DNA of 64,000 nt from Abditibacteriota bacterium (GCA_017445025.1 JAFSVJ010000028.1:95752-159751); one strand, 5' to 3'; positions 2,318 through 59,391 are shown, counted from the stretch's first letter. Notes: generated from the letters alone by a model not told the origin. Numbers and translations: made by a program.

Positions 2318-3352
2318 TCACTTCTTATACTCGCTTGGAATTAGTTTGGGCTTTATTATTTTGTTATATTCTATTAAAGGTTTGTTTTCAATTAAAGCAT
2401 TTAATAATTCTATAGCTTCTCTTCCCACTTTGTATAAATCAAATTCCAGTCTTGAAATTTTATATTCTTCATTATAGTTTTGGTGAGCATGAGATTGGGT
2501 GATTATAGGTGTGTCTTTAAAAATATTGGGATAATCTCTAAAATATTCTGATGTAATATCAAACAAGTTATTATCCGTAAAAACTATCAAATCCGGTTTG
2601 GTTTTTATTGTATCAAGAATTTCTATAATTTCTCCTTCACCTTTATCTTTTTTTGAAATATAATTAATTCTGTAAAGACTATACTTTTCAAATATAATTG
2701 CTTCAAGGTGAAAAGGATAACAATCAAAGATTCTGTCAACATCTTCATCAAGTGGGTTTATGGTAAAAACCAGAACATTTTGAGCATTCATCTTATTTAT
2801 TTGATTTATTATTTCTTTATATAAATAAATATAATCTAATGAAACAGTTGGGTAAGGAAGATTATTAAATCTTAAAATATCCACTATAGGAATATCCAAC
2901 GACGCTATATATTGTAGATCCTTTAGCTCTGCACTTAGTGAAATTGCTCCGTCTATTTCGTTTTTAAAAGGACCTACAGAAGTTTCAATATCAAGAATAT
3001 CATTAGCAATAAAATACAAAGGAGTATAACCTTTGTCAATAATATATTTATTTAAAATCTTACAAAAAAACCTGTATAGTTTTTTTGTATCTCCTTTTGT
3101 TGAATAGGTTGTGGATACAATAAGAATATACTTTTTCTTTTCATTATTTTTTGCAACAAATGTTCCGCTACCTCTTATTCTTTTGATAATTCCTTCTTGT
3201 TCTAAATCTGTAAAGGCACTTCTTATGGTATTCCTGTTAACATTAAGTGTTTCTGCAAGAAGAACTTCACTAATCAGTTTGTCTCCGTATTTTAAGTTAT
3301 TTTCTTTTATATGATTATTAATATAATCTATTATTTGTTGTTTTTTTGTCAT
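2318..3352 (-). CDS. GntR-family transcriptional regulator with a C-terminal periplasmic-binding-protein-like (sugar-binding) domain; paralog 1.
   Basis: N-terminal winged helix-turn-helix motif 'YGDKLISEVLLAETLNVNRNTIRSAFTDLEQEGIIKRIRGSGTFVA'. Start placed at the internal 'MTKKQQ' preceded by GGAAGG. About 60% identical to the product of 8269..9309. Confidence 0.75.
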   Translation of the reverse strand: MTKKQQIIDYINNHIKENNLKYGDKLISEVLLAETLNVNRNTIRSAFTDLEQEGIIKRIRGSGTFVAKNNEKKKYILIVSTTYSTKGDTKKLYRFFCKILNKYIIDKGYTPLYFIANDILDIETSVGPFKNEIDGAISLSAELKDLQYIASLDIPIVDILRFNNLPYPTVSLDYIYLYKEIINQINKMNAQNVLVFTINPLDEDVDRIFDCYPFHLEAIIFEKYSLYRINYISKKDKGEGEIIEILDTIKTKPDLIVFTDNNLFDITSEYFRDYPNIFKDTPIITQSHAHQNYNEEYKISRLEFDLYKVGREAIELLNALIENKPLIEYNKIIKPKLIPSEYKK

Positions 3353-3476
3353 TTTTATTATCCTTCCCAATTTATTATATAACAAATCAACAAAGAAAGT
3401 CAACTTTAAAAATAATTAGTCTATACAACTTTTTTGTAAAAGATAGATTTTTTAGATTTTTTCTATAAAAATTCTA

Positions 3477-3506
3477 TTGACTTTATTTGTTTGATTATGG
3501 TATAAT
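3477..3506 (+). promoter_or_regulatory. Sigma70-type promoter for pilin-like gene 1: -35 TTGACT at 3477-3482, an 18-nt spacer, and an extended -10 TGGTATAAT at 3498-3506.
   Basis: Consensus hexamers with the TGn extension. The same 'TGGTATAATATAA' occurs upstream of the paralog at 9455. Confidence 0.6.
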
Positions 3507-3529: not shown

Positions 3530-3558
3530 TAAATAATTAGTGTATACTTTTTTATTTA
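3530..3558. promoter_or_regulatory. Candidate operator: palindrome TAAATAA-N15-TTATTTA with a central GTATAC, lying between the -10 and the ribosome-binding site of pilin-like gene 1.
   Basis: Dyad symmetry read directly from the sequence. Analogous dyads occur at the same position in the two paralogous modules. Confidence 0.45.
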
Positions 3559-3596: not shown

Positions 3597-4376
3597 ATGT
3601 TCAAAAGAGGATTTACCCTTATAGAATTGTTGGTGGTTATCGCTATAATCGCCATTCTTGCTGCAATTCTATTTCCCGTTTTTGCCCAAGCAAGAGAAAA
3701 AGCCCGAGCCGCCAGTTGTCTGTCCAATGTAAAGCAGTTGGGAACAGCCCTTCAGCTTTATATTGATGACTACGACGAAACCCTTCCAGTTGGTTATGAT
3801 CCGGCCAGACCCACAACTAACTTGAGTGCCGATTATAACAACTATCCGGCTAAGTGTTTCCCATATATGTTCGCACAGGGATTGCAAGCTGAGATACATT
3901 ATTGGACTTGGATGGATTCCATATTCCCTTATGTTAAAAACGTAAAGTTATATACTTGTCCCTCATCCGGTAATATTAAAATCAATAATGTTTATACTTG
4001 CGGCTATGGATTTAACTACAAATTCACCGAATATTTACCAACAGGGGCTCCACAAGTAATTGCCTATGGTTCACTAAACAATCCATCTAAAAAAGTGTTC
4101 CTTGCTGATACTCAAGTTTCAACTGCAGGTTGGACAGACTTTATTATATGTCCTTACACTATGAGAATAAGAAAAAACGAAGGTGCAATAGCTTGGGTTG
4201 TAGGAATTCCTTCTATAAGACATAACGATGGAGCAAATTACACTTTCTGTGATGGTCATGCTAAGTTCTATAAAAGAAATGCTGGACCGACAGAGACAGT
4301 TATTGTTAACGGAACAGAAGCCAATAACTCTAATTACTGGGGTAATGGCGTTGATTGGTGGGATCCGGCTGCATAA
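3597..4376 (+). CDS. Secreted protein with a prepilin-type N-terminal cleavage/methylation domain and a C-terminal H-X9-DG motif (PVC-group pseudopilin-like family); paralog 1.
   Basis: '[32 protein letters not shown]' is a class III signal/prepilin N-terminus. '[17 protein letters not shown]' gives H-X9-DG. Strong ribosome-binding site AGGAGG. Confidence 0.8.
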
Positions 4377-4441: not shown

Positions 4442-4449
4442 GGTTCAGT

Positions 4450-4483
4450 GCCTCTTTTTTTAAGAGGCATTTTATTTTTTTTT
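4450..4483 (+). terminator. Rho-independent terminator (GCCTC-N9-GAGGC followed by a T-run) after pilin-like gene 1.
   Basis: Hairpin followed by a T-tract. Confidence 0.6.
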
Positions 4484-8268: not shown

Positions 8269-9309
8269 TTATTCATTATTCTTATACTCGCTTGGGATTA
8301 GTTTGTGTTTTATTATTTTGTTATACTCTATTAAAGGTTTATTTTGAATTATACCCTCTAATAACTCCATAGTCGCCCTTCCCATTTCATATAAATCAAA
8401 TTCCAGTCTTGTAATATTATACTTACCTGTATAGCTCCAATTTATATTTGAATGAGTTATAATAGGAGTATCTTTAAATATATGAGGATAATCATCAAAA
8501 TATTCTGATGTTATCTTGAACAAATTATCGTCCAAAAACACTACCATATCAGGCTTTTCTTTTATGTTATCCAATATATTTACTATTTCTTCTTCACCAT
8601 TATCTTCACTTTGACCATAACTTATACGATTGTTATTGTAATCACTAAATATAAAATCTTCCAACTGAAAGGGATAACTGCTGTATACATTGCTAACACT
8701 ATCTTTTCTCAAAGCCAAAGAAAATATCAAAACATTAGTGCAACCGTTTCTTTTGATTATTTTTATTATCTCTTCATGAAAATAACTAAAATCAAAGGTG
8801 ACCAAGGGATAAGGGGTTGGCAAGACACCTAAAACATCTACAATGGGTATATTGTTTGACGCAATATAATCTAAATCTTCCACTCTGCCCGCTAATGAAA
8901 TAACTCCTGCAATCTCATATTTATATGTCTCTATTAAAGTTTTAATATCTATCATTTTATTGGAAATAAAATATATAGGTGTATAATTTCTGTCAATAAT
9001 ATACTTATTTAATATTTTAAAGAAGAATCTAAAGATTTTCTTTATATCTCCTTGAGTTGCGTAATCTGTGGAAACTATAAAAATATACTTTTTTTCCTTA
9101 TTCTTCAGTGCCACAAATGTGCCTCTGCCATGCTCTCTATCTATAATCCCTTCTTTTTCAAGATCAGCATAAGCTATTCTAACGGTTCCCCTACTGATTT
9201 TTAATTCTTCCGCAAGGAGAGTTTCACTTATTATTTTATCTCCGTATTTTAAATTATTGTCTTTAATATAATCTTTTATATACTTAATTATTTCTTCTCT
9301 TTTGGTCAT
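8269..9309 (-). CDS. GntR-family transcriptional regulator with a sugar-binding-like C-terminal domain; paralog 2.
   Basis: 'YGDKIISETLLAEELKISRGTVRIAYADLEKEGIIDREHGRGTFVA'. Ribosome-binding site AGAGGTGA. Confidence 0.75.
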   Translation of the reverse strand: MTKREEIIKYIKDYIKDNNLKYGDKIISETLLAEELKISRGTVRIAYADLEKEGIIDREHGRGTFVALKNKEKKYIFIVSTDYATQGDIKKIFRFFFKILNKYIIDRNYTPIYFISNKMIDIKTLIETYKYEIAGVISLAGRVEDLDYIASNNIPIVDVLGVLPTPYPLVTFDFSYFHEEIIKIIKRNGCTNVLIFSLALRKDSVSNVYSSYPFQLEDFIFSDYNNNRISYGQSEDNGEEEIVNILDNIKEKPDMVVFLDDNLFKITSEYFDDYPHIFKDTPIITHSNINWSYTGKYNITRLEFDLYEMGRATMELLEGIIQNKPLIEYNKIIKHKLIPSEYKNNE

Positions 9310-9434
9310 ATTTCACCTCTGTCAATTATATTATAATATAAAAACACATTAAAAAGCAATTTATTAAAAAATAGGTATAAACAAGTTTTTTCAAAAAAAT
9401 GAGTTTCAATAATATTTTATATATAAGATCTCCT

Positions 9435-9463
9435 TGACATTTATAATTTAAATATGGTATAAT
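9435..9463 (+). promoter_or_regulatory. Sigma70-type promoter for pilin-like gene 2: -35 TTGACA at 9435-9440, a 17-nt spacer, and an extended -10 TGGTATAAT at 9455-9463.
   Basis: Consensus hexamers with the TGn extension. Confidence 0.65.
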
Positions 9464-9486
9464 ATAATTGATAAAGAAAAATCCAA

Positions 9487-9518
9487 ACAATTAATAGGTA
9501 TATACAAGTTAATTGTTT
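9487..9518. promoter_or_regulatory. Candidate operator palindrome AACAATTAA-TAGGTATATACAAG-TTAATTGTT between the -10 and the ribosome-binding site of pilin-like gene 2.
   Basis: 9-bp perfect arms; the centre contains the palindrome GTATATAC. Confidence 0.5.
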
Positions 9519-9546: not shown

Positions 9547-10242
9547 ATGTTCAAAAAAGGATTTACCCTTATAGAATTGTTGGTTGTAATAGCAATTATA
9601 GCCATTCTTGCTGCAATTCTATTCCCCGTTTTCGCTCAAGCAAGAGAAAAGGCCAGACAAACCAGTTGTTTGTCAAATTGTAAACAAATAGGAACAGCGC
9701 TTCAACTTTATGTTGATGACTATGATGAAACTGTTCCGTTAATGTGGTACAACAGCAACCCATTTCCAACAGATAATTCATATCCTTGCTGTATGTTTAC
9801 CACAATGGATTTTATCTATGGCGGTCCAGCACTATGGACTACTTGGATGGATGCTATATTTCCTTATGTAAAGAATAGAAATATATTTATTTGTCCTTCC
9901 GGAGGAAAAAATCTTGCAGGTTATGGTTATAATGGTAATTTAGTTGGTGGTTATACTGTATGGACACAGGAAAACGCAAAGCCTATCAATCTCGCTCAAA
10001 TCAATAACTCTTCTCAATTAACATTTATTGGGGATACTCTCCAAGGTGGAACTTATAGTGCTATGCCTTTATCTTCTGCTTTAATTTATGCTTATAAGAA
10101 AAATATTAATAGGCATATTAGTGGTATGAATTGGACATTTTGTGATAGTCATGCTAAATACTATAAAGATTCAGCAGGACCGGCCTCTGCACCTAACGAC
10201 TGGATTTGTGCAGGAAATGTTTGGTGGGACCCTGCTGCTTAA
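9547..10242 (+). CDS. Prepilin-type N-terminal cleavage/methylation plus H-X9-D(S/G) protein; paralog 2.
   Basis: '[38 protein letters not shown]'. The C-terminal '[17 protein letters not shown]' gives H-X9-DS. Confidence 0.8.
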
Positions 10243-10262: not shown

Positions 10263-10289
10263 AGGGGGATATATTCCCCTTTTTTTTTG
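10263..10289 (+). terminator. Rho-independent terminator (AGGGGGATATATTCCCCT followed by T9).
   Basis: Perfect hairpin followed by a T-run. Confidence 0.7.
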
Positions 10290-10352
10290 TAATAAAATAA
10301 TAAATATGATATAATATAATTAAGTAAAAAAATATTTTTTAGGGAGATTACA

Positions 10353-37369: not shown

Positions 37370-38581
37370 TTATTTCTTATTATTCTTTTCTTCTTTCGGT
37401 AATTCTTTTACTTTTGTTTCGCTTGTTCCGTTCTCTTCATCATATTTCTTATAAAACATTTTCTGTTGAATGGTTTGGAAAATGTTAAACACAAGCCAAT
37501 AAAGTAAGAATGCACTGGGGAACCCGGCAAACAAGAATGCGAACATTATGGGGAACATGTAGCTCATCATTTTTTGTTGGTCTGCCTGCTGCTTGTCGGC
37601 AACGGGAGTATTCATTTTCATAGAAACGAAAGTTGAAATAATGTATATAACCAAAAGTATTAAGTCTGCTTCTGCAAGATTTGCACCACAAAACCAAACA
37701 ACTTGTCCCGGCTGTCCCAAAACATTTAATGAGAAGTGATGTTCAAAAGTTGAACCTATCCACAAAAATGTTCCCTTTTGGAATTGAATTTCATAAGATT
37801 TTATAACATAAAATAGGAAGAAGAGAATAGGCATCTGTATTAACAAAGGCAAACAACCACTCAAAGGGTTTATATTATGCTCTTTGTATAAAGCCATAGT
37901 CTCCTGACCTAATTTCTGTTGATCGTCTTTATATTTCTCTTGAAGAGCCTTTATCTTAGGCTGAATCTTCTGCATCTCCTTCATAGATCTCATTTGAGTA
38001 TTAAAAAGAGGAGTTAGGACAATCTTAACCACAATGGCTATCAAAACAATGGCAAACCAATAAGAAAACCCCGGTTTTGAGCCTGTCAACTTAACGAGAA
38101 AATCAATTATCTTATAATTAAGTTTTTCAGAATTTTGCTTATCAAGAAGCAACCCCACTTCCTGTTTTTTCTCTTTGATTTCTACAACTTTGTTCTTAAT
38201 CTCTCCGATTTCTTTTGTGGTAAACCCGGCTTTATCCAATTCGGCATCAGTTCTATCCCAACGAACCACAAGCATTTTCAAAGCTTCATAAGCTCTTTGA
38301 GTTTGTTTGGGGTCTCCTGATGCTGCTTGAATTTTGGCAAGTTCATATTGAGCATATATAGCTTCCGGAGTATCTTTGGTTTTCTTGTTTTTAAGAATAT
38401 CATTAAAACATTCGGAAGCCTCAGCTTGAAGTTCCTTTTTCTCAGAGGATGACTGAGAAGCCTCAGCCTTTTGTACATACTCCATTCCCTTGTTGTATAG
38501 TTCTTGAGATTTTGTCTCATCTGCAAAAACACCAACTGACAAGAATAGAATAAAACATATAAATAAAAATCTTAATTTCAT
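37370..38581 (-). CDS. yidC: Membrane protein insertase YidC/Oxa1 family with an N-terminal TPR-like periplasmic region
   Basis: 'LPLLIQMPILFFLFYV' YidC core, and gene context. Confidence 0.75.
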   Translation of the reverse strand: MKLRFLFICFILFLSVGVFADETKSQELYNKGMEYVQKAEASQSSSEKKELQAEASECFNDILKNKKTKDTPEAIYAQYELAKIQAASGDPKQTQRAYEALKMLVVRWDRTDAELDKAGFTTKEIGEIKNKVVEIKEKKQEVGLLLDKQNSEKLNYKIIDFLVKLTGSKPGFSYWFAIVLIAIVVKIVLTPLFNTQMRSMKEMQKIQPKIKALQEKYKDDQQKLGQETMALYKEHNINPLSGCLPLLIQMPILFFLFYVIKSYEIQFQKGTFLWIGSTFEHHFSLNVLGQPGQVVWFCGANLAEADLILLVIYIISTFVSMKMNTPVADKQQADQQKMMSYMFPIMFAFLFAGFPSAFLLYWLVFNIFQTIQQKMFYKKYDEENGTSETKVKELPKEEKNNKK

Positions 38582-38689: not shown

Positions 38690-38960
38690 TTATTATCGCA
38701 AAATCGTTCCGCACCCCCCGCCGTTTTTGACAGTTTTCCTACGGAAAACACCAAAAACGACTACAGGGTGGGGGGTCTATAAAGGGCTCCCGAAAAGTCG
38801 TAAGACTTTTTGGGAATAATGCCCTATGGGGATGGGGGCCCGACTTCGGGGCTACCCCCCTCCGGCTCCCCCCTATATGCCTTCTAGTATAGGCTGGTCA
38901 ACAGAATTTTACCCCCATAGGGGGGGAGAGAGTGGTGCTCCTACATTACCATTTCCCTTG
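38690..38960. repeat. GC-rich, G/C-run-rich repeat mosaic inserted between yidD and yidC (CCCCCC/GGGGGG runs and a CCCGAAAAGTCGTAAGACTTTTTGGG hairpin).
   Basis: Composition clearly differs from the AT-rich background. It contains copies of the hairpin families seen elsewhere in the window. Confidence 0.5.
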
Positions 38961-39088
38961 ACTAAAGTATCTATCCACCATAGCCCACCTTAAAAATTAG
39001 GGCCCGGTAACCTAAGTGGTGCGAACCACCACAAGTTTGATTTTCTATTTTTTGATTATTGATTTTAAATTTGCCATTGGCAAATTTA

Positions 39089-39316
39089 TTATTTCACGGG
39101 GTCATCTCCCCCTTTTGACCATGGGTTGCAACGAATTATTCGCCATATTCCCAATAAAGAGCCTTTAAGAACTCCATATTTTTCAATAGCTTGAGCCGTA
39201 TATTCGGAACAAGTGGGATGAAAACGACAAGTTGGTGGCAAAAACTTTCTTGAAAAAGGTTGATAACATCGTCTTATAAGAAAAAGACAAAATTTCTTAA
39301 TCACCTGTGACCCCAT
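39089..39316 (-). CDS. yidD: Membrane protein insertion efficiency factor YidD
   Basis: '[19 protein letters not shown]…[16 protein letters not shown]'. Confidence 0.85.
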
Positions 39317-39854: not shown

Positions 39855-40146
39855 TATAACCTCCATAAAAAGACAATCATTATAAATTATATCACAAATC
39901 GGGCTCTTTTGTCAAATTATACAAAAAAACTACCTGTTAATAATATAAAAAAACCACATCTAATGTCTCTAACAAATTAAATTTTCTCTAAAAATTGTAT
40001 ATTAATATAAAAATGTAGTATAATAATATTAGGTGTATTAAATTTAAAAATTATTAATTATATTTTTATTCATATTTATAGAAAATAACTTGTTTATATT
40101 AGGTGTCACTTTTTATAATCTATTGACATATTAATAGGAGGCTTTT

Positions 40147-41874
40147 ATGGAGCTTTTACATAACAGATATGAAATAATTAAAAGGCTTAGCGATACCACC
40201 GTCTGTGAAGTCTATTTGTGTAAAGATAACACAAACGACACTTCCGTCAGTGTTTACAAAGTCAAGTCTTCCTTTATGCAGGATGTTTCTTTTGTAAACG
40301 GTTTGACACAGGGTATTATTGATTGCAGAGACCTTAATCATGCAAATACACTAAAATTTATAGATGTGGATACTGACCCGGATAACGAAAGTATTATCTA
40401 TGTTTACGAATATGCCGACGGTGTTTCTCTTAAAGAAGTTTTTGCCAGACAAGCCAAACTGCCATTGCAAAAATCCATAGAAATTGCGGTTAACGTCCTT
40501 CAATCCCTTGACAATGCTCACTTAATGGGAATTTGTCACGGAGACCTTTACACTGATGATGTTTTTATCACCCAGGATGGTCATGTTAAAGTTCGTGGTT
40601 TCGGTAGAAAAGACGGTATAGAGCAATCTTCCATTGCCAAAGAACACCTATCTCTTGAAACCATAAGATACCAATCTCCGGAAGTATTAGAAAACCAAGG
40701 CCTATATGAATCCAGTGACGTTTACTCTGTAGGTGTAATTCTCTATCAAATGCTCACGGGACGATTGCCCTTTGACGGAAATACCTCCGTTGAAATTGCT
40801 ACCAAAATATTAAGAGATGCTCCACTATCACCGAGAATGATTAACAGAGACCTTTCCGCTTCTCTCTCATCTCTTATTCTTGAATCCATTAACAAAGAAT
40901 ACAACGCTCGTGTAGGCACAGCATCCCTCTTTATCTCAAGATTAACAGACGCACTGAGAGGATACAAGCAAGGAGAATACTCAGCACCAAAAGAACATAT
41001 TGCCATAAAACAAGAAACGGGAAAAGACAAAAAATCAGTTATTCCCATGCTCCTTGTTTTGTTTGTGGTAGCTTGTGTCTTAACCGCAGCCATTACGGTT
41101 GTAGCAATAAACGGTAAAAAGATGCAAACCCCTAATCTCATAGGATTAACAGAAGAAGAAGCTATCAACAAGCTCCAAGGGCTTAAATTAGGCTTTAACA
41201 AAGGAGAAGACAGATTCTCCACAGACTATGGTGCAGGTGTGATTTGTGACCAAAGCCCAAAAGCCGGAGAAAAAATAGGTAAAAAAGAAAAAGTTGAATA
41301 TTACCTTAGCAAGGGTGCTCCGGAAATCAAAATGCCTTATATCATAGGTCTTGATTATGAAACAGCAAAAGAAAAGTTATCTATGGGTAATTTCACCATT
41401 GAATTAAAAGAAGAATTTTCAAACTCCGTTCCCGACGGATCGGTTATAAGCACATCTCCGGAAACCGGTGTTACCTTGAGCAACGGTGCTCCAATTACCA
41501 TTACAATTTCCAAGGGTTCAGGCGGAGGCTCTTACACCAGCAGCGGAACAACCTCAGGCAGAATTAATTACGGAAATTCCGAAACAGGCGCTCCCACATA
41601 CACAGGTGATAACCCGGAAGGAAACGACTCTGAAGACAGACCAAGAAGAAGTTCAAAACAGGGCAAAAAAGTATCTTCTCAGGGTTCCGACACTCCCACA
41701 GAGACAACTACTTCAAAGAAAACCGATGAAGGAAAAACTTCAACCAAAAAAGAAGAAGCAAAAGTTGATACTCCCAAGCCTCAACCTAAGGAAACATCCA
41801 AACCTTCCGAAAGTCACAGTTCCTACTCTTCTTCCGGAGGCTCTACACCCGACGCAACAGTTGATTTTGAATAA
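40147..41874 (+). CDS. Ser/Thr protein-kinase-like protein with a transmembrane segment and PASTA repeats. The catalytic motifs are degenerate, so it is likely a pseudokinase.
   Basis: HGD in place of HRD, 'GFG' in place of DFG, APE-like 'SPE'. Two PASTA-like repeats after the transmembrane segment, followed by a low-complexity Ser/Thr/Pro tail. Confidence 0.6.
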   Translation: MELLHNRYEIIKRLSDTTVCEVYLCKDNTNDTSVSVYKVKSSFMQDVSFVNGLTQGIIDCRDLNHANTLKFIDVDTDPDNESIIYVYEYADGVSLKEVFARQAKLPLQKSIEIAVNVLQSLDNAHLMGICHGDLYTDDVFITQDGHVKVRGFGRKDGIEQSSIAKEHLSLETIRYQSPEVLENQGLYESSDVYSVGVILYQMLTGRLPFDGNTSVEIATKILRDAPLSPRMINRDLSASLSSLILESINKEYNARVGTASLFISRLTDALRGYKQGEYSAPKEHIAIKQETGKDKKSVIPMLLVLFVVACVLTAAITVVAINGKKMQTPNLIGLTEEEAINKLQGLKLGFNKGEDRFSTDYGAGVICDQSPKAGEKIGKKEKVEYYLSKGAPEIKMPYIIGLDYETAKEKLSMGNFTIELKEEFSNSVPDGSVISTSPETGVTLSNGAPITITISKGSGGGSYTSSGTTSGRINYGNSETGAPTYTGDNPEGNDSEDRPRRSSKQGKKVSSQGSDTPTETTTSKKTDEGKTSTKKEEAKVDTPKPQPKETSKPSESHSSYSSSGGSTPDATVDFE

Positions 41875-52855: not shown

Positions 52856-54226
52856 TTATTTTAATACTTCTTTTATTCTGTCAGCCAAGGTATGAACTAT
52901 TCTGTCCACATCATCTTGGTTATCACCTTCAGCCATTACTCTTATAAGATTTTCTGTGCCGGAAGCTCTTAATACCAATCTTCCGCTATCTCTCAGTTCT
53001 TCTTCGGCTTTTTCCTTTGCCTTCAAAATCTCCTCATTCTCTTCCCAACCTTCCTTGTTTTCCACTTTAACATTTACCAAAAGCTGAGGATATTCTTTTA
53101 TGTCTTTTGTCAATTCCTTTAAAGTCTTTCCACTCTGTAAAATTGTTTTAATAACCATAAGAGCGGTTAACATCCCGTCTCCCACAGGGGCTATTTCATT
53201 AAAAATTATGTGACCGCTTTTTTCTCCGCCCACAACAGCTCCAAGAGTTATCATATCTTCTGCCACATATCGGTCACCCACTTTTGATCTGTGAAGTTTT
53301 ATACCGGAAGCTTTTAAATATTTGGCAAGGCCCAAATTACTCATAACTGTCCCTACCACACAATCTGCGGGAAGACCGACACTCTCTTTTCTCTCTTTAG
53401 CATAAAGAGCCATTATTTTATCACCGTCAACAATATTCCCTTCGTGATCACACATTATAACTCTGTCTGCGTCACCGTCAAAGGCACAGCCTAAATCTGC
53501 TCCTTCTTCTTTTGTCGCCTTAGCGATAAATTCAGGATGAAGAGAACCGCATCCTCTGTTAATATTTAGACCATCGGGAGTGTGATTAAAAGATATAGCT
53601 TTTGCTCCTAAACTTTCAAAAAGTTCTTTAGCTATATTTGATGAAGCGCCATAAGCACAATCAAGAGCTATAGTCATGCCGGAAAGATTCAAAGGCTCAT
53701 CATTTATCTTTACAGCATTTTTCAAAAAATCCATATAAAGATGAACATATTCACTGCCATCTATTCTTATTCCAATCTTATCTTCCGATTCAAACTTTGG
53801 GCTAATATTATCCATAATGTTTTCTATGTAAGTTTCTGTTTCGTCAGAAAGTTTATTTCCGTCTTTTGAAAGAATTTTAATGCCGTTATCATAATATGGA
53901 TTATGAGAAGCGCTTATTACAACTCCCAAACTTACAAATGAATTGTTTTTGGTAACAAAGCCAACGCCGGGAGTGGTTATAACACCCAAATCCAAAACAT
54001 TCACACCCATAGAACACAAACCTGATGAGAGTGCGCTCTTTAGCATAAATCCGGAAAGCCTTGTATCTGTGCCTATGGCAACAGTTTTACCTAAACCCTT
54101 TTCATTCAAATATTGCCCTAAAGCATAACCTAATTTTAGTGATAAAAGAGATGTCAATCCTTTATTTGCCACACCTCTGATACCGTCTGTGCCGAAATAT
54201 TTACCCATATTTTTCCTCCTACTCAA
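52856..54226 (-). CDS. glmM: Phosphoglucosamine mutase
   Basis: 'GTDGIRG', active-site 'SASHNPYYDNGIK'. Confidence 0.9.
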   Translation of the reverse strand: MSRRKNMGKYFGTDGIRGVANKGLTSLLSLKLGYALGQYLNEKGLGKTVAIGTDTRLSGFMLKSALSSGLCSMGVNVLDLGVITTPGVGFVTKNNSFVSLGVVISASHNPYYDNGIKILSKDGNKLSDETETYIENIMDNISPKFESEDKIGIRIDGSEYVHLYMDFLKNAVKINDEPLNLSGMTIALDCAYGASSNIAKELFESLGAKAISFNHTPDGLNINRGCGSLHPEFIAKATKEEGADLGCAFDGDADRVIMCDHEGNIVDGDKIMALYAKERKESVGLPADCVVGTVMSNLGLAKYLKASGIKLHRSKVGDRYVAEDMITLGAVVGGEKSGHIIFNEIAPVGDGMLTALMVIKTILQSGKTLKELTKDIKEYPQLLVNVKVENKEGWEENEEILKAKEKAEEELRDSGRLVLRASGTENLIRVMAEGDNQDDVDRIVHTLADRIKEVLK

Positions 54227-54446: not shown

Positions 54447-56735
54447 TTATTTTAATACACATATTACTCTGTCAATGGTAATTGCTTCCGCACAATCCGG
54501 ATTATTTACACCGCACATATAAAATGTTCCGTCTTTACAATCTCCAAACTCAAAATTACCTAAATATATTATATTAAAAGAATTGTCATTTAGATCTTTG
54601 GCAGCAATATTATTCTTAAATCTGTTTGAATTTGTATTATAGTCCCAAACTCCTAAGGTAGCTATATCACCTATATCATTATGTTTATTTACGGTTTTAC
54701 ATTCAACATAAACATCAAGAGAAGTTTTCCCTGCCTTTTTGAAATTAACAATATTACCTGATACAGACCTTTGCATTGACCATTCGGTTTGTGTGGGATA
54801 AAGATCTGTGACTGTTCCGAATGAGGCATCTTTTTCTTCTCTTTGCACACCTATTGCATGTAAACCAAAATCAAGACTATCTATTTCAAACCAATCTTCA
54901 TCTTTTATGTTATTATCAATGATAAACTGCGGAGTTTTATCGGATTTTTTTAATTCATAAGCGGCTGCAACAAAATCTATAGGCTTTCCTTCACTTATAT
55001 ATCCGTTACCATGTGCGATAATATATTTTTCAAAATATTCACTAAATTCTTCTTTATCATTCCATGGCAGTTTACATTCCATAAGCACTCTGTCAAACTT
55101 TTCATCATTCATTACATACCAACCATATAAAAAGCTGATATAAATATTATTGATTTTTGTATTTGCTTGTTCATCTTTTTCTGTTTTCTTTAAGGCTTCT
55201 TGAAAAAGTTTTACACTCTTTACATAGTCATCTTCAGTCATCCATTCCATATCATATACATAAGTGGGATAATATAAACCTTTGTGATATACCGCATTAG
55301 TGTAAATATCTATAATTTTTAAAATTTCCTTATAACCTTTTCCGTAAACATTTTTACAAAAATCTTCTTTAAGTTTATCTACATCTTCATCAGGATTCCA
55401 CAAAAGTTTTGATATTAAGAAATTTTTAAGCTCATTAAATGTAGAACCTTCATTATAATAATCACCTTGTTCAAACATGGCAATTACATTGTGATCTCTG
55501 AAATATTGTAGATTTGGCTTTAATATATGCAAATTGGGATGAACTATATGACAATTAGAAAAGTTTACCGTATAATCCCACACATAAAGACTTTTACATA
55601 TATTAGCCCATGCTTCCAAATTATCCGCAAAAACCTTATTAATGGTTTGAGTATCTATATATCCCCAATTTCTTCCATTTACCGGGGTATATGGGCCAAA
55701 GGCACTTTTTTCTGCAATAGGCTCACAGAAATTATTTTCTATATCACAAACACGAATAATAACATTATCGGCACAAGTTATGCCCTTTGGAGCGGGAAGG
55801 GTGTGTTGATATGCCAAAGTTTCCACATAAACATTGGGATACTTTTTCTTAACCTCTCCTGCCACATAATTTATCATCTCTACCAAAGCTCCCGCAGGAG
55901 AAGCGTATTTTTCCTTGGCGGCACGGCAATTTTCACATTCACATTCAGTTGTATTATCCATTTGTGAAACATCTATAATCTTTGGATTATTATATGAATC
56001 CAATATTTCTATAACTCTTTTGGCAAGCTCCTTCTGCATTTCCTTGTTTGTCCAACAAAGTTGAATAGGCACTCTTCTGCCCGTCACAAGAGAATAAAAC
56101 TCCGGATGCTCATTCATATACTTTTCAGGTGGCAAATAAACCATACTTGAATGACACCAATTTATTAGTTCTATATGACCACCCATTTCTTCACTGATAT
56201 AATTATGATTTCCGTTTAACTTGTGCTTTAAAGCAAATTCCGGATAAGCATTGTTTCCGCGGTAATAAGCTTCCCTTGACATAAAAGAAGGAGTATAAGA
56301 ATAATTTATGTTATTACTTAAAACAATGGCTTTCTTTGAAGGTATCTTTTCTATGTCTTTGGTATAAAACTCAACACCTAAATATTTTACCAAGAATTCA
56401 TAAACGGAATAAATAGTTCCCCGTGGACTGTTTCCTTGAATATATAAATTATTATCCTTAAAGTTTATATTTACACCGTCGTCACCGGTTTCATCACCTA
56501 AGGCACTGATATAAACACTTTTAGGCGTCTCTGTTGTGGTTATATTTAATTTGTTTCCGGTTATTTTTTCAATATACTTTATAAATTCCTCTGCCGCATA
56601 CTTTTCAGCTTCGGTGGCATTTTCCTTAATAACCACATTAGTATTTTTAGTTATTGAAAAAGCAAACAAAGAAACTGAGAACATAAGTATAAATAGTAAT
56701 ACAAATAAAGATTTTAATAATATAACAACTTTCAT
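54447..56735 (-). CDS. Secreted DUF4838-like (GH20-related) putative glycoside hydrolase
   Basis: Signal peptide present. The 'CECENCRAAKEKY…YVETLAYQHT' region resembles DUF4838. Co-directional with pilin-like gene 3. Confidence 0.45.
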   Translation of the reverse strand: MKVVILLKSLFVLLFILMFSVSLFAFSITKNTNVVIKENATEAEKYAAEEFIKYIEKITGNKLNITTTETPKSVYISALGDETGDDGVNINFKDNNLYIQGNSPRGTIYSVYEFLVKYLGVEFYTKDIEKIPSKKAIVLSNNINYSYTPSFMSREAYYRGNNAYPEFALKHKLNGNHNYISEEMGGHIELINWCHSSMVYLPPEKYMNEHPEFYSLVTGRRVPIQLCWTNKEMQKELAKRVIEILDSYNNPKIIDVSQMDNTTECECENCRAAKEKYASPAGALVEMINYVAGEVKKKYPNVYVETLAYQHTLPAPKGITCADNVIIRVCDIENNFCEPIAEKSAFGPYTPVNGRNWGYIDTQTINKVFADNLEAWANICKSLYVWDYTVNFSNCHIVHPNLHILKPNLQYFRDHNVIAMFEQGDYYNEGSTFNELKNFLISKLLWNPDEDVDKLKEDFCKNVYGKGYKEILKIIDIYTNAVYHKGLYYPTYVYDMEWMTEDDYVKSVKLFQEALKKTEKDEQANTKINNIYISFLYGWYVMNDEKFDRVLMECKLPWNDKEEFSEYFEKYIIAHGNGYISEGKPIDFVAAAYELKKSDKTPQFIIDNNIKDEDWFEIDSLDFGLHAIGVQREEKDASFGTVTDLYPTQTEWSMQRSVSGNIVNFKKAGKTSLDVYVECKTVNKHNDIGDIATLGVWDYNTNSNRFKNNIAAKDLNDNSFNIIYLGNFEFGDCKDGTFYMCGVNNPDCAEAITIDRVICVLK

Positions 56736-56920: not shown

Positions 56921-57664
56921 CTATTGATAGTAAGCAGGATCCCAATATTGGCAATTATCCCCCCAAGATTCCAAATAAACAGACGGACCGCTGTGCCTTT
57001 TGTTATATTTTGCATGTCCATCACAATATGTAATGTTCATACCATCATTGTGCCTATTAGGTTGAGAATAACTGCCACCTGTCACAACATCACCGCAAGC
57101 AATTACCGGTGCCATTACAAAAGCACCCTGAGACCAAGGTTCAGCAGTTTGAACCAGTGCATCACAACAAAATACAATCTCTGAAACATTACTTATTCCG
57201 GATAAAGAATAAGGGTTGCATCCTGAAGCAACATCTATTGAGTTATATCCATGATTTAACATTATATTAAAGCCATAACCGTTAAACTTTTTGTTAAGAG
57301 AAGGACAATTAAAAATATTAACATTTTTAACATATGGGAATATAGAATCCATCCAAGTCCAACTATAAGAAACGTTTATAACCCAAGCTGTTGTTCTTAA
57401 TTTTGTAAATGGATATCCGGGCCAATTTGCCACGTCAGCATCAGTATACATACTGAGCCTTGAGTCACAACATGGTGGGACAGTCTCCTCAAAATCGTCT
57501 ATATAGAGTTGCAATGCCGTCCCAATCTGTTTAGTATTGGATAAACAATTTGCAGCTCTTGCCTTTTCCCTTGCCTGTGCAAACACAGGAAACAATATTG
57601 CTGCCAGAATAGCTATAATAGCTATCACTACCAACAACTCGATTAATGTAAAAGCTTTCTTCAT
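56921..57664 (-). CDS. Prepilin-type N-terminal cleavage/methylation plus H-X9-DG protein; paralog 3.
   Basis: '[40 protein letters not shown]'. C-terminal '[17 protein letters not shown]'. Confidence 0.8.
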
Positions 57665-57695
57665 TTTTTTACCTCTCTCATTTTCCTACTTGTAT

Positions 57696-57726
57696 TAATA
57701 AGTTTTTAATACAAGTATGATATATT
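57696..57726. promoter_or_regulatory. Candidate operator palindrome TACTTGTATTAA-TAAGTTT-TTAATACAAGTA between the promoter and the ribosome-binding site of pilin-like gene 3.
   Basis: 12-bp perfect arms. Confidence 0.5.
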
Positions 57727-57754
57727 TTTTTGCTTTACAATAATAATTATATCA

Positions 57755-57783
57755 CATTTTCATCAAAATGTCAAGGTTTTTTT
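57755..57783 (-). promoter_or_regulatory. Sigma70-type promoter for pilin-like gene 3 on the minus strand: -35 TTGACA (57778-57783), a 17-nt spacer, and an extended -10 TGATATAAT (57755-57763).
   Basis: Consensus hexamers. Confidence 0.55.
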
Positions 57784-57913
57784 AAGTAAAAAATTCAAAA
57801 AATTCAAAAAATCGAAAAAAAGTTATTATAATAAATTAAGTTATAACTTGATTTTTTTTTATAAATATAGTATAATAATATATGATAACTTATTAGTATA
57901 AATCAGGTATAAT

Positions 57914-58945
57914 ATGAATAAAAAGGATATAGTTATAAAATATATTGAAGAAAACATAAACAATGGTAAATGGAAGGTCGGCTCCAAAATTTTCTCAGAA
58001 AATCAATTAATTGATTATTTGGGAGTTTCCAGAGTGACCATTCGTTTAGCCATAAATGAATTGTGCAATAAAGGCGTCCTTGAAACTCGCCAAGGAAGCG
58101 GAACATATATCAAAGGACAATACACAAACCCGGGAAAATATATTATCATATTAACAAGTATAGGTGCTGTAACGGGAGACACCAATTATATTTACAGATA
58201 TTTTATAGACTTATTGGAAAAATATATTAAAAGTTTGGGATACTCACCTATAGCTTATGTGGGAAATCCGGATATTAACATAGAAGAGGGTCTTGCAAGC
58301 AAACTAAATGACATCGGAGGGATCATATTTCTTTACGGACTCCAAAAAGACTTAGATGTGCTTAATATGCTTAACATCCCCATTATTTCTTCCTTAGGTG
58401 CATTTAGCAATTTTTGTCCGGGAGTTCTATTAGACTATACGGATTTAATCTACAAAACAGACTACCTTTTAAAAAAATATAATTATAAAGAAGTTATTAT
58501 TTTTAAAATCAATCAAAACAACAAAAAACATGTTAAAGAAAATCTTGTTTGGCTTGCCATGGACAGTTTCTTTTCTAATTATCATGTTGTAAATATGCCC
58601 ATATCCTACGACCACAATATGAAGGTAGATATTTTTAAAAGCACTATCTCAAAAATCAAAAAGTCTCCGGACTGTATTGTATTTATGGATGATACCATAT
58701 ATCTTACTGCCTCTCCATACTTTCAAAAATATCATAACATTTTAAAAGATACCAAAATTATAACCCACTCCTCAGGAAATTTGGAAACCACAGATGTTTA
58801 TAAAATCTGTAAAATAGAATTTAATTTAGATAAGGTTGCAAAAGAAACCGTAAACCTAATTGACAAAAGAATAAATAAAATTAATTTTAATGAATATAAC
58901 ATTTATATTAAACCTAAAGTTATAAATGAAGAAAACTTAATTTAA
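57914..58945 (+). CDS. GntR-family transcriptional regulator with a sugar-binding-like domain; paralog 3 (more divergent than the other two).
   Basis: 'SENQLIDYLGVSRVTIRLAINELCNKGVLETRQGSGTYI'. Confidence 0.7.
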   Translation: MNKKDIVIKYIEENINNGKWKVGSKIFSENQLIDYLGVSRVTIRLAINELCNKGVLETRQGSGTYIKGQYTNPGKYIIILTSIGAVTGDTNYIYRYFIDLLEKYIKSLGYSPIAYVGNPDINIEEGLASKLNDIGGIIFLYGLQKDLDVLNMLNIPIISSLGAFSNFCPGVLLDYTDLIYKTDYLLKKYNYKEVIIFKINQNNKKHVKENLVWLAMDSFFSNYHVVNMPISYDHNMKVDIFKSTISKIKKSPDCIVFMDDTIYLTASPYFQKYHNILKDTKIITHSSGNLETTDVYKICKIEFNLDKVAKETVNLIDKRINKINFNEYNIYIKPKVINEENLI

Positions 58946-59391
58946 AAAAAGCAAAAATTATAATCCTGTTTTAAAATTTTAAAGTTTACAAAGCAAAATA
59001 AAATGTGGGTGCAGACTTTTTGGGATTTGGTGCTACGTAATGGGCTCCATTGCGGCAAAAAAGCCTCAGTTGTTAGATTCACCCTCCTTAAACTAAAATT
59101 TGCAAATTTTCTTTTAAGGAGGGGGGACCATTCGCAAAGCGAATGGTGGGTGGTCAGGAATATATTTGCATAGAATTGCAAATTTATGCATTCACTCGCT
59201 TGCGAGATAGAAGCCTAATAATTTAAACCAACAACCCAAGTTCAATTCCCAAGGGGTCCCGAAAAGTTGAAGCATCTGCGAAAACTTTTTGGGAATGGGA
59301 AGGAGGGGTATAGATAGAACAAGCCTTAAGCTTATCGTTTATTTTGCATTCTGCATTTTTCATTAAAAAAAAGCCCTTTTCAGGGCTTTTT

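Follow-up and report, generated by a model that had tools for sequence, protein, structure and literature searches.

The window, that is, the whole 64 kb stretch of DNA that was analyzed, contains three paralogous modules (M1, M2, and M3), each composed of a regulator gene and a pilin-like gene transcribed in the opposite direction (Table 1). The DNA belongs to a metagenome-assembled genome of the Abditibacteriota: R1 is 100% identical to an NCBI protein annotated to this phylum. The regulators (R1, R2, and R3) are about 345 amino acids long, and the pilin-like proteins (P1, P2, and P3) have 230–260 amino acids. R1 and R2 share 58% protein identity, R3 is 33–35% identical to R1 and R2, and the pilin-like proteins are about 46–47% identical in pairwise comparison. 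A first-pass annotation of this DNA had described the genes as pilin-like and the adjoining genes as members of the GntR family, and domain searches agree with both descriptions. The pilin-like genes are recognized by N_methyl, DUF1559, and H-X9-DG domain matches. PF07963, PF07596, and TIGR02532 match all three pilin-like proteins, whereas TIGR04294 (H-X9-DG) matches only P1 and P3.

All three regulators match the winged helix-turn-helix (wHTH) domain PF00392 (54.5, 49.8, and 50.3 bits for R1, R2, and R3, respectively; cut-off 27). The C-terminal domain gave no Pfam Peripla_BP match by sequence, being too diverged, and the UTRA domain PF07702 did not match the regulators. An AlphaFold (AF2) model of R1 was built from a 15-sequence alignment (pLDDT 85.5) and compared with known structures, where it matched LacI-family cores (SghR, LacI ancestors, CcpA, and Cra) with a Foldseek E of about 1e-12, a probability of 1.0, and a TM(target) of 0.6–0.7. 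Because a GntR wHTH is combined with a modeled LacI/GalR fold, the R1–R3 family is an AraR-type chimera, with an N-terminal GntR wHTH and a C-terminal sensor of predicted LacI/GalR fold. Outside the family, the sequences closest to it are those of classical AraR proteins (P0007 and P0020) from arabinose operons, and the family is thus placed as a divergent sister of AraR with a different target. Two other assignments were rejected. An arabinose AraR orthologue does not fit the neighborhood, which consists of DUF1559 pilin-like genes, a DUF4838/GH20b protein, and large unknown proteins; true AraR loci (L016 and L017) carry araA, araD, ribulokinase, and ABC transporter genes. The HutC subfamily was rejected on the missing UTRA match and the LacI-like fold.

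Table 1. Position of the genes, promoters, dyads, and boxes of the three modules in the window (promoters, boxes, and hairpins are predictions)
Feature	Position	Strand	Details
R1, module 1 regulator (344 aa)	2318..3352	-	Pfam GntR E=9.5e-15; AF2; Foldseek
R1 promoter (predicted)	3374..3403	-	TTGACT-18-TATAAT; 11/12 consensus
M1 box A	3411..3430		shared 16-mer AATAATTAGTCTATAC (3411-3426); frame 3415-3430; GT 3419-20, AC 3425-26
Pilin-like gene 1 promoter	3477..3506	+	TTGACT-18-(TGg)TATAAT; near-consensus, extended -10
M1 dyad	3530..3558		TAAATAA (3530-3536), N15, TTATTTA (3552-3558)
M1 box B	3532-3547		shared 16-mer AATAATTAGTGTATAC; 16-bp frame 3536-3551; within the dyad
Pilin-like gene 1	3597..4376	+	N_methyl + DUF1559 + H-X9-DG
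Terminator-like hairpin 3' of pilin-like gene 1	4447-4471	+	
R2, module 2 regulator (346 aa)	8269..9309	-	
M2 box A	9370..9387		AATAGGTATAAACAAGTT, flanks A6/T6; A/B pair P<=0.002
Pilin-like gene 2 promoter	9434..9463	+	TTGACA-18-(TGg)TATAAT; 12/12 consensus
M2 dyad (10-bp arms)	9485..9518		AAACAATTAA (9485-9494), N14, TTAATTGTTT (9509-9518)
M2 box B	9493-9510		AATAGGTATATACAAGTT; axis coincides with the M2 dyad axis
Pilin-like gene 2	9547..10242	+	
Terminator-like hairpin 3' of pilin-like gene 2	10263-10280	+	
Terminator-like hairpin 3' of pilin-like gene 3	56815-56792	-	
Pilin-like gene 3	56921..57664	-	
M3 dyad (12-bp arms)	57687..57717		TACTTGTATTAA (57687-57698), N7, TTAATACAAGTA (57706-57717)
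M3 overlapping inverted 16-mers	57688-57703	+	ACTTGTATTAATAAGT
	57701-57716	-	ACTTGTATTAAAAACT
Pilin-like gene 3 promoter	57746..57774	-	TTGACA-17-(TGa)TATAAT; 12/12 consensus
R3 promoter (predicted)	57848..57876	+	TTGATT-17-TATAAT; 10/12 consensus
M3 third, weaker box-like site	57888..57903	-	ATTTATACTAATAAGT; 13/16; about +5 to +20 of the R3 leader
R3, module 3 regulator (343 aa)	57914..58945	+	

The pilin promoters of the three modules match the consensus at 11–12 of 12 positions and have, in addition, an extended -10 (TGn). The sole other promoter of the TTGACA-N-TGnTATAAT form in the window (39886-39915, minus strand) drives rpmH (L34; 39720-39866, minus strand), which is followed by rnpA and yidD. 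The rpmH/rnpA/yidD cluster is usually located near the replication origin. The product of a divergent ORF of 575 amino acids (40147-41874), judged by eye from its sequence, looks less like DnaA than like a Ser/Thr kinase that has PASTA-like repeats. Between a yidD-like ORF (39089-39316) and a yidC-like ORF (37370-38581), on the downstream side of rpmH and rnpA, there is a G+C-rich island of about 340 bp with G and C runs (38700-39040, minus strand) in a genome of about 33% G+C. Its predicted RNA folding energy is -137.8 kcal/mol (z=-2.66), and it had no Rfam match at E<=1. The island may be an unannotated structured RNA or the remnant of a mobile element.

Some further observations concern the surroundings of the modules. 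In M2, the divergent promoters mirror the same extended sequence around and after the -10, TATAATATAATTG (9322-9335 versus 9458-9471), which makes a 14/14 inverted repeat (P<0.01 versus shuffles); equivalents of this arrangement occur in the related loci L004, L005, and L011. The initial transcribed sequence G/TAAAG recurs among the pilin leaders. Another promoter-like site with TG (10287-10315) is found 3' of the terminator-like hairpin of pilin-like gene 2. Downstream of module 3, genes for a DUF4838/GH20b protein (54447-56735, minus strand) and GlmM (phosphoglucosamine mutase, 537 bits; 52856-54226, minus strand) are present, and these neighbors hint that module 3 is perhaps tied to hexosamine or glycan metabolism.

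Dyads and paired boxes in the intergenic regions

A dyad had been reported for each of the three pilin-like genes, and all three exist. The M1 dyad is exactly as it was first described. The M2 dyad is real but had been placed 1–2 nt off, and the M3 dyad, which is also real, had been given at 57696-57726, 9 nt away from its true position. The dyads had been described as lying immediately downstream of the -10. They do lie downstream, but they start 22–29 nt after the -10 hexamer, at about +15 to +50 of the predicted pilin transcript, that is, in the transcribed leader. The GT/AC-type core proposed for all three is present in M1 (GTGTATAC) and M2 (GTATATAC), where it is centered on the axis of the dyad to within 0.5 nt, but M3 has none at its center: its AAACTTA spacer is without a GT-N4-AC core, and GTAT/ATAC motifs are found within the arms. 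The M3 dyad is made of two overlapping inverted 16-mers with half-sites 13 bp apart, an architecture unlike that of M1 and M2. The outer arms of M2 hold an additional TTGT-type half-site (AATTGTTT), whereas those of M1 do not, and the M2 operator could be an extended one with four half-sites. The view that position is shared while sequence differs is supported in that each pilin-like leader has a module-specific, GntR-type operator-like sequence.

Chance occurrence of the dyads was estimated with dinucleotide shuffles of either the whole intergenic region or the leader alone. A 7-bp dyad was present in 74% of the shuffled M1 intergenic regions and 30% of the shuffled leaders (P 0.74 and 0.30), and the M1 dyad alone is therefore not significant. 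The corresponding values were about 0.03 and 0.01 for M2 and about 0.01 and <0.0005 for M3. The concentric GT-N4-AC core gave P of about 0.0015 even for M1, in a post hoc test.

The signal is carried by a shorter, inner pseudo-palindrome of 16 bp built around GT-N4-AC, the operator signature of AraR/GntR regulators, and each module has its own version of it. Besides the copy inside the dyad (box B), each intergenic region has a second copy (box A), which was absent from the first-pass annotation; nothing else argues as strongly for binding by a protein as this second copy. A test based on the best 14-mer repeat was too weak at about 20% G+C, where shuffles reach 12–14/14, and it was replaced by AT-aware log-odds. 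The A window was compared with the pilin leader by AT-aware local alignment against 500 shuffles. The A/B pair beat all 500 shuffles (P<=0.002) in M1, M2, L006, L014, and L015, and L004 gave P=0.012; pairing is significant in 6 of the 10 distinct modules tested. The exact M1, M2, and M3 boxes are confined to their own intergenic regions within the 64 kb window.

The positions of the boxes are constant across lineages, with box A 54–64 nt from the regulator ATG and box B 12–44 nt after the -10. Box A is located 8–11 bp upstream of the predicted -35 of the regulator (8 bp for R1), with the exception of M3, where the second site is instead in the regulator leader. Box A thus lies upstream of the predicted regulator promoter and not over it, an odd place for simple autorepression. 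The center of M1 box B is at about +31 of the predicted transcript, and the A–B distance is 121 bp in M1 and 123 bp in M2. The flanks of box A are symmetric at 8 of 10 positions in both M1 and M2, compared with about 3.4 expected.

All boxes have the half-site A-n-T-T-G-T-A-T in common, and all except those of L014 and M3 also share the GT-N4-AC geometry, to which the cores GTCTATAC, GTGTATAC, GTATAAAC, GTATATAC, and GTATGCAC conform. In silico, the GT-N4-AC core in its 16-bp frame was found in M1, M2, L004–L006, L011, L013, and L015; M3 departs from it. The M1 and M2 boxes agree at 11 of 16 positions, and with so much in common their predicted sites may permit cross-talk between the two modules.

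The arrangement in M3 was considered separately. At the canonical position, the AT-aware search for an M3 box A was not significant; the window of this box-A test did not span positions 57888-57903, where a third, weaker box-like site is located. When both strands of the 64 kb window were searched for the M3 box with <=3 mismatches allowed, nothing apart from the dyad itself and this third site matched. It is without the G of GT and is treated as uncertain for this reason. A palindrome by the R3 -35, AAGTTATAACTT, was rejected as M3 box A, having no resemblance to the M3 box. The M3 16-mer agrees with box A of L013 at 14 of 16 positions, and the DNA-binding domain (DBD) of the L013 regulator is 67% identical to that of R3.

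Related loci and conservation of the boxes

A word-limited search returned 14 full-length relatives of the regulators, and an exhaustive HMMER search over 1.84 billion representatives returned about 90 clusters of the regulator family. The family is small but real. When genome contigs were searched with the regulator alignment, all that matched were GntR domains of Fusobacteriaceae and Clostridium unrelated to the family, and a profile search of metagenome contigs found two partial loci without the intergenic region. The loci used for comparison were obtained on ten contigs through exact-protein look-ups. Nine of these contigs extend beyond the sequence upstream of the regulator, and in each of the nine a DUF1559-type pilin-like gene is transcribed divergently from it; the pilin-like call relies on Pfam N_methyl/DUF1559 in six of these nine and on N-terminal sequence or the family leader in L007, L013, and L015.

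Two boxes were found in 7 of 9 lineages. With the near-identical copies of M3 set aside, the pairs recur at the same positions but differ in sequence from lineage to lineage. The box of L006 (TAATGTATGCACAwTAA) and that of L015 (TAAAGGTmTATACC) occur twice, that of L014 (AGTTGTTCAACAAT) occurs twice in inverted orientation, and that of L013 (TTGTATAAAyAA) is present in three copies. L007 and L011 have box A alone. In L004, an orthologue of M1, box B is flipped and lies 13 nt nearer the -10, a change that can be accommodated by a putative symmetric protein site.

When orthologues are compared, no stretch is better conserved than box A. It is identical at 21/22 positions between M1 and L004 and at 18/18 positions between M2 and L005, where the identity of the whole intergenic region is 68% and 77%, respectively. 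Between M2 and L005, the core of box B is kept at 12/13 positions and the left outer arm at only 5/10. The M1 dyad region is retained in L004 at 19/29 positions, which is the background level. As the box is kept and duplicated while the outer arms are not kept, the conserved unit is the inner box. The first-pass annotation had likened the palindromes themselves to operators; this is supported for the inner box of about 16 bp, which is conserved and duplicated, but not for the outer arms by which the palindromes had been defined.

DBD identity was correlated with box identity (Mantel r=0.43, P=0.012), but the correlation was not significant without the two orthologue pairs (r=0.19, P=0.16). A mosaic was observed when positions 57500-58950 of the window were compared with positions 1100-2543 of L012 (ena:ERZ27257205:k141_910830). 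The DNA of pilin codons 1-54, the intergenic region, and regulator codons 1-62 (wHTH) is 96–100% identical, the flanks are 83–87% identical, and the sensor domain of the regulator is 60–76% identical. The break in identity is sharp and falls at the boundary between DBD and sensor, at about position 58100. This suggests a swap or a hyper-divergence of the sensor domain while DBD and presumed operator stayed fixed as a unit. Such joint inheritance of DBD and intergenic region lends support to the regulation proposed below.

Proposed regulation and alternative explanations

It is probable that each dyad contains, or in M3 consists of, the predicted operator of the adjacent regulator, and that this operator serves sugar-relieved roadblock repression together with autoregulation. 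What has been demonstrated of this model is that the boxes exist, that they are duplicated and conserved in a lineage-specific way, and how the regulator domains and the genes are arranged; that the adjacent regulator binds the boxes, that it represses, that it does so as a roadblock, and what kind of ligand it senses are inferred. A regulator dimer would recognize the pseudo-palindrome of about 16 bp through the half-site A-n-T-T-G-T-A-T, the GT-N4-AC core, and A/T-rich symmetric flanks. Each module would use its own box variant, with at least two copies in its intergenic region. Without ligand, a dimer at box B (about +31) would block RNA polymerase as it leaves the strong, near-consensus promoter. 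Only the position of box B points to a roadblock. Binding at the other box (box A or, in M3, the site in the regulator leader) would lead to autoregulation and possibly to cooperative stabilization, and the repressor would come off once its LacI-like domain has bound a sugar-type ligand. Repression is plausible given that the pilin promoters are 11–12/12 consensus with an extended -10, and such promoters would need repression rather than activation. Since a terminator-like hairpin follows each pilin-like gene and no boxes precede the downstream genes, a small regulon is proposed. It may comprise just the pilin-like gene and its own regulator, and the large genes downstream of the pilin-like genes may be neither co-transcribed nor co-regulated with them.

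A possible, though doubtful, alternative is that the dyads act in RNA, as 5'-UTR stem-loops that stabilize the pilin-like mRNA or tune its translation, alone or beside a repressor. Leader hairpins of -11, -12.5, and -12.1 kcal/mol are predicted for M1, M2, and M3, respectively. The ten family leaders have a mean folding z of -2.4, compared with -0.1 for a background of 21 further 5' regions from the window (Mann-Whitney P=3e-4), and with predicted start sites z is about -2 or below in 7 of the 10. The L011 leader forms a strong hairpin (z=-3.6) with box B absent, and the long hairpin of L004 (z=-4.2) is unlike that of M1 in sequence, so the structure is kept and the sequence is not. The stem begins at nt 1–2 of the predicted transcript in 6 of 10 leaders, and known 5' stabilizers occupy the 5' end of the transcript. 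In addition, the box A regions, which have the same boxes, fold poorly (mean z of about -0.4). However, the M1, L013, and L015 leaders fall short of significance (z=-0.6 to -0.9), A-U pairs make up nearly all of the stems, no common alignable structure and no covariation were found among the leaders, and Rfam found only a tRNA in the window. Some hairpin is unavoidable from a palindromic operator. The untranscribed box A flanks of M1 and M2 are equally symmetric, which makes symmetry a property of the DNA as well, and a role in RNA does not account for the other copy of the box, which precedes both promoters. Given the L011 and L004 hairpins and the poorly folding box A, an RNA role for the extra symmetry of box B is plausible, and it is compatible with repression. 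An attenuator or terminator reading of the dyads was rejected, as no terminator-like site was found in the three leaders and such sites occur only 3' of the pilin-like genes.

An unlikely arrangement is a dimer of dimers that bridges boxes A and B and forms a repression loop of about 120 bp around the pilin promoter. The boxes flank this promoter at about -94 and +31, the sensor has a LacI/GalR fold, and the separation of 100–125 bp is akin to that of gal OE-OI, whose loop is about 113 bp. AraR represses fully only when it binds cooperatively to two boxes at the proper spacing and a small loop is formed (PMC1950556). However, the distances between the centers of A and B are 100, 112, 114, 117, 121, 123, and 125 bp and are unphased at 10.5 or 11.1 bp per turn. 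As this spacing shows no helical phasing, looping is unsupported. L007 and L011 have a single box, the box arrangement of M3 differs, and no evident tetramerization element was found.

It is very unlikely that the regulator activates transcription, or both activates and represses it, with box A as an upstream activating site, even though box A is located at about -94 from the pilin start and about -52 from the regulator start, is universal and best conserved, and lies upstream of both core promoters and not over them. The pilin promoters already have 11–12/12 consensus positions and an extended -10, and box B, being downstream of the start site, is in a repressor position. AraR and most sugar-responsive regulators of the GntR/LacI type are repressors (PMC1950556, PMC4494728). 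Finally, the idea that the palindromes are functionless products of chance in intergenic DNA of about 20% G+C is hardly credible: the 7-bp A/T arms of M1 are readily matched or beaten in shuffles and best 14-mer repeats of 12-13/14 are frequent there, but the M2 and M3 dyads and the concentric M1 core are rare in them, the A/B pairs reach P<=0.002 in five lineages, and box A is 95–100% kept in orthologues.

Repression of each pilin-like gene by the adjacent regulator is thus the preferred reading. As a mechanism, this is textbook: a repressor of the GntR/AraR type acts through two palindromic operators located between divergent genes. The interest lies in the targets, which are DUF1559/H-X9-DG pilin-like genes, an unstudied family. 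These proteins are expanded in Planctomycetota and related phyla, and to our knowledge they have no established function. In a full-text literature search, DUF1559 was found beside "pilin" only in a transcriptome study. If each pilin gene does have its own LacI-fold, presumably sugar-sensing repressor, the ligands would provide a handle on pilin-like function. With the predicted operators, it could readily be tested how specific paralogous GntR regulators are and whether they engage in cross-talk.

A more speculative and quite unlikely extension is that the modules are self-contained cassettes inherited together, each with an AraR-like repressor, a private operator pair, and a terminator-bounded pilin gene, which undergo sensor swapping and whose hairpin-embedded operator perhaps has a dual DNA and RNA role. 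Such cassettes would diversify by exchanging the sensor, as suggested by the L012 mosaic, while the DBD and the operator stay the same. One leader sequence may then act on DNA in repression and on RNA in stability. If this is true, individual DUF1559 pilin-like members would be deployed upon specific glycans.

Comparison with known systems

AraR of Bacillus subtilis is the closest model, as it combines a GntR wHTH with a GalR/LacI-type effector domain like the regulators described here. It recognizes a 16-bp palindrome, ATTTGTACGTACAAAT, of GT-N4-AC geometry, is autoregulated, and acts at several two-box promoters, often cooperatively and with DNA looping (PMC1950556). Box B of L013, ACTTGTATAAACAAAT, matches the AraR consensus at 12 of 16 positions. 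Unlike in AraR, the C-terminal domain of the present family is recognized only by its fold, and the target is a single DUF1559/H-X9-DG pilin-like gene instead of arabinose catabolism and transport. The boxes of AraR are close, "in phase and properly spaced" (PMC1950556), whereas those described here are 100–125 bp apart and unphased. Furthermore, the window has three paralogous modules, each with its own box.

The boxes also resemble the operators of HutC regulators (NagR/YvoA and the dre site of DasR), since their GT-n-TA-n-AC pattern is matched exactly by GTCTATAC, GTATATAC, and GTATAAAC. YydK, YvoA, and DasR are among the best matches of the DBD to PDB sequences. In contrast to HutC regulators, the effector domain has a LacI-like fold and is not UTRA/chorismate-lyase-like.

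In the GalR (gal OE-OI) and LacI (O1 and auxiliary operators) systems, one operator is upstream and one is transcribed, and they flank the promoter at a separation of about 110–120 bp. The present modules share the sensor fold and the operators flanking the promoter with these systems. Unlike GalR and LacI, the regulators have a GntR wHTH as DBD and not a LacI HTH with a hinge helix, and looping or an HU-type partner is unsupported here.

Divergons of GntR regulators with double sites, in which each site is near its own operon, were described as one class by Suvorova et al. (2015), who also noted motifs "extended by additional boxes" (PMC4494728). The modules are similar to these divergons in that the regulator is divergent from its target and two palindromic sites lie between them. 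That survey dealt with FadR, HutC, and YtrA regulators of other phyla (PMC4494728), whereas the regulators described here are of the AraR type, and one of the two sites is located in the transcribed leader of the pilin-like gene.
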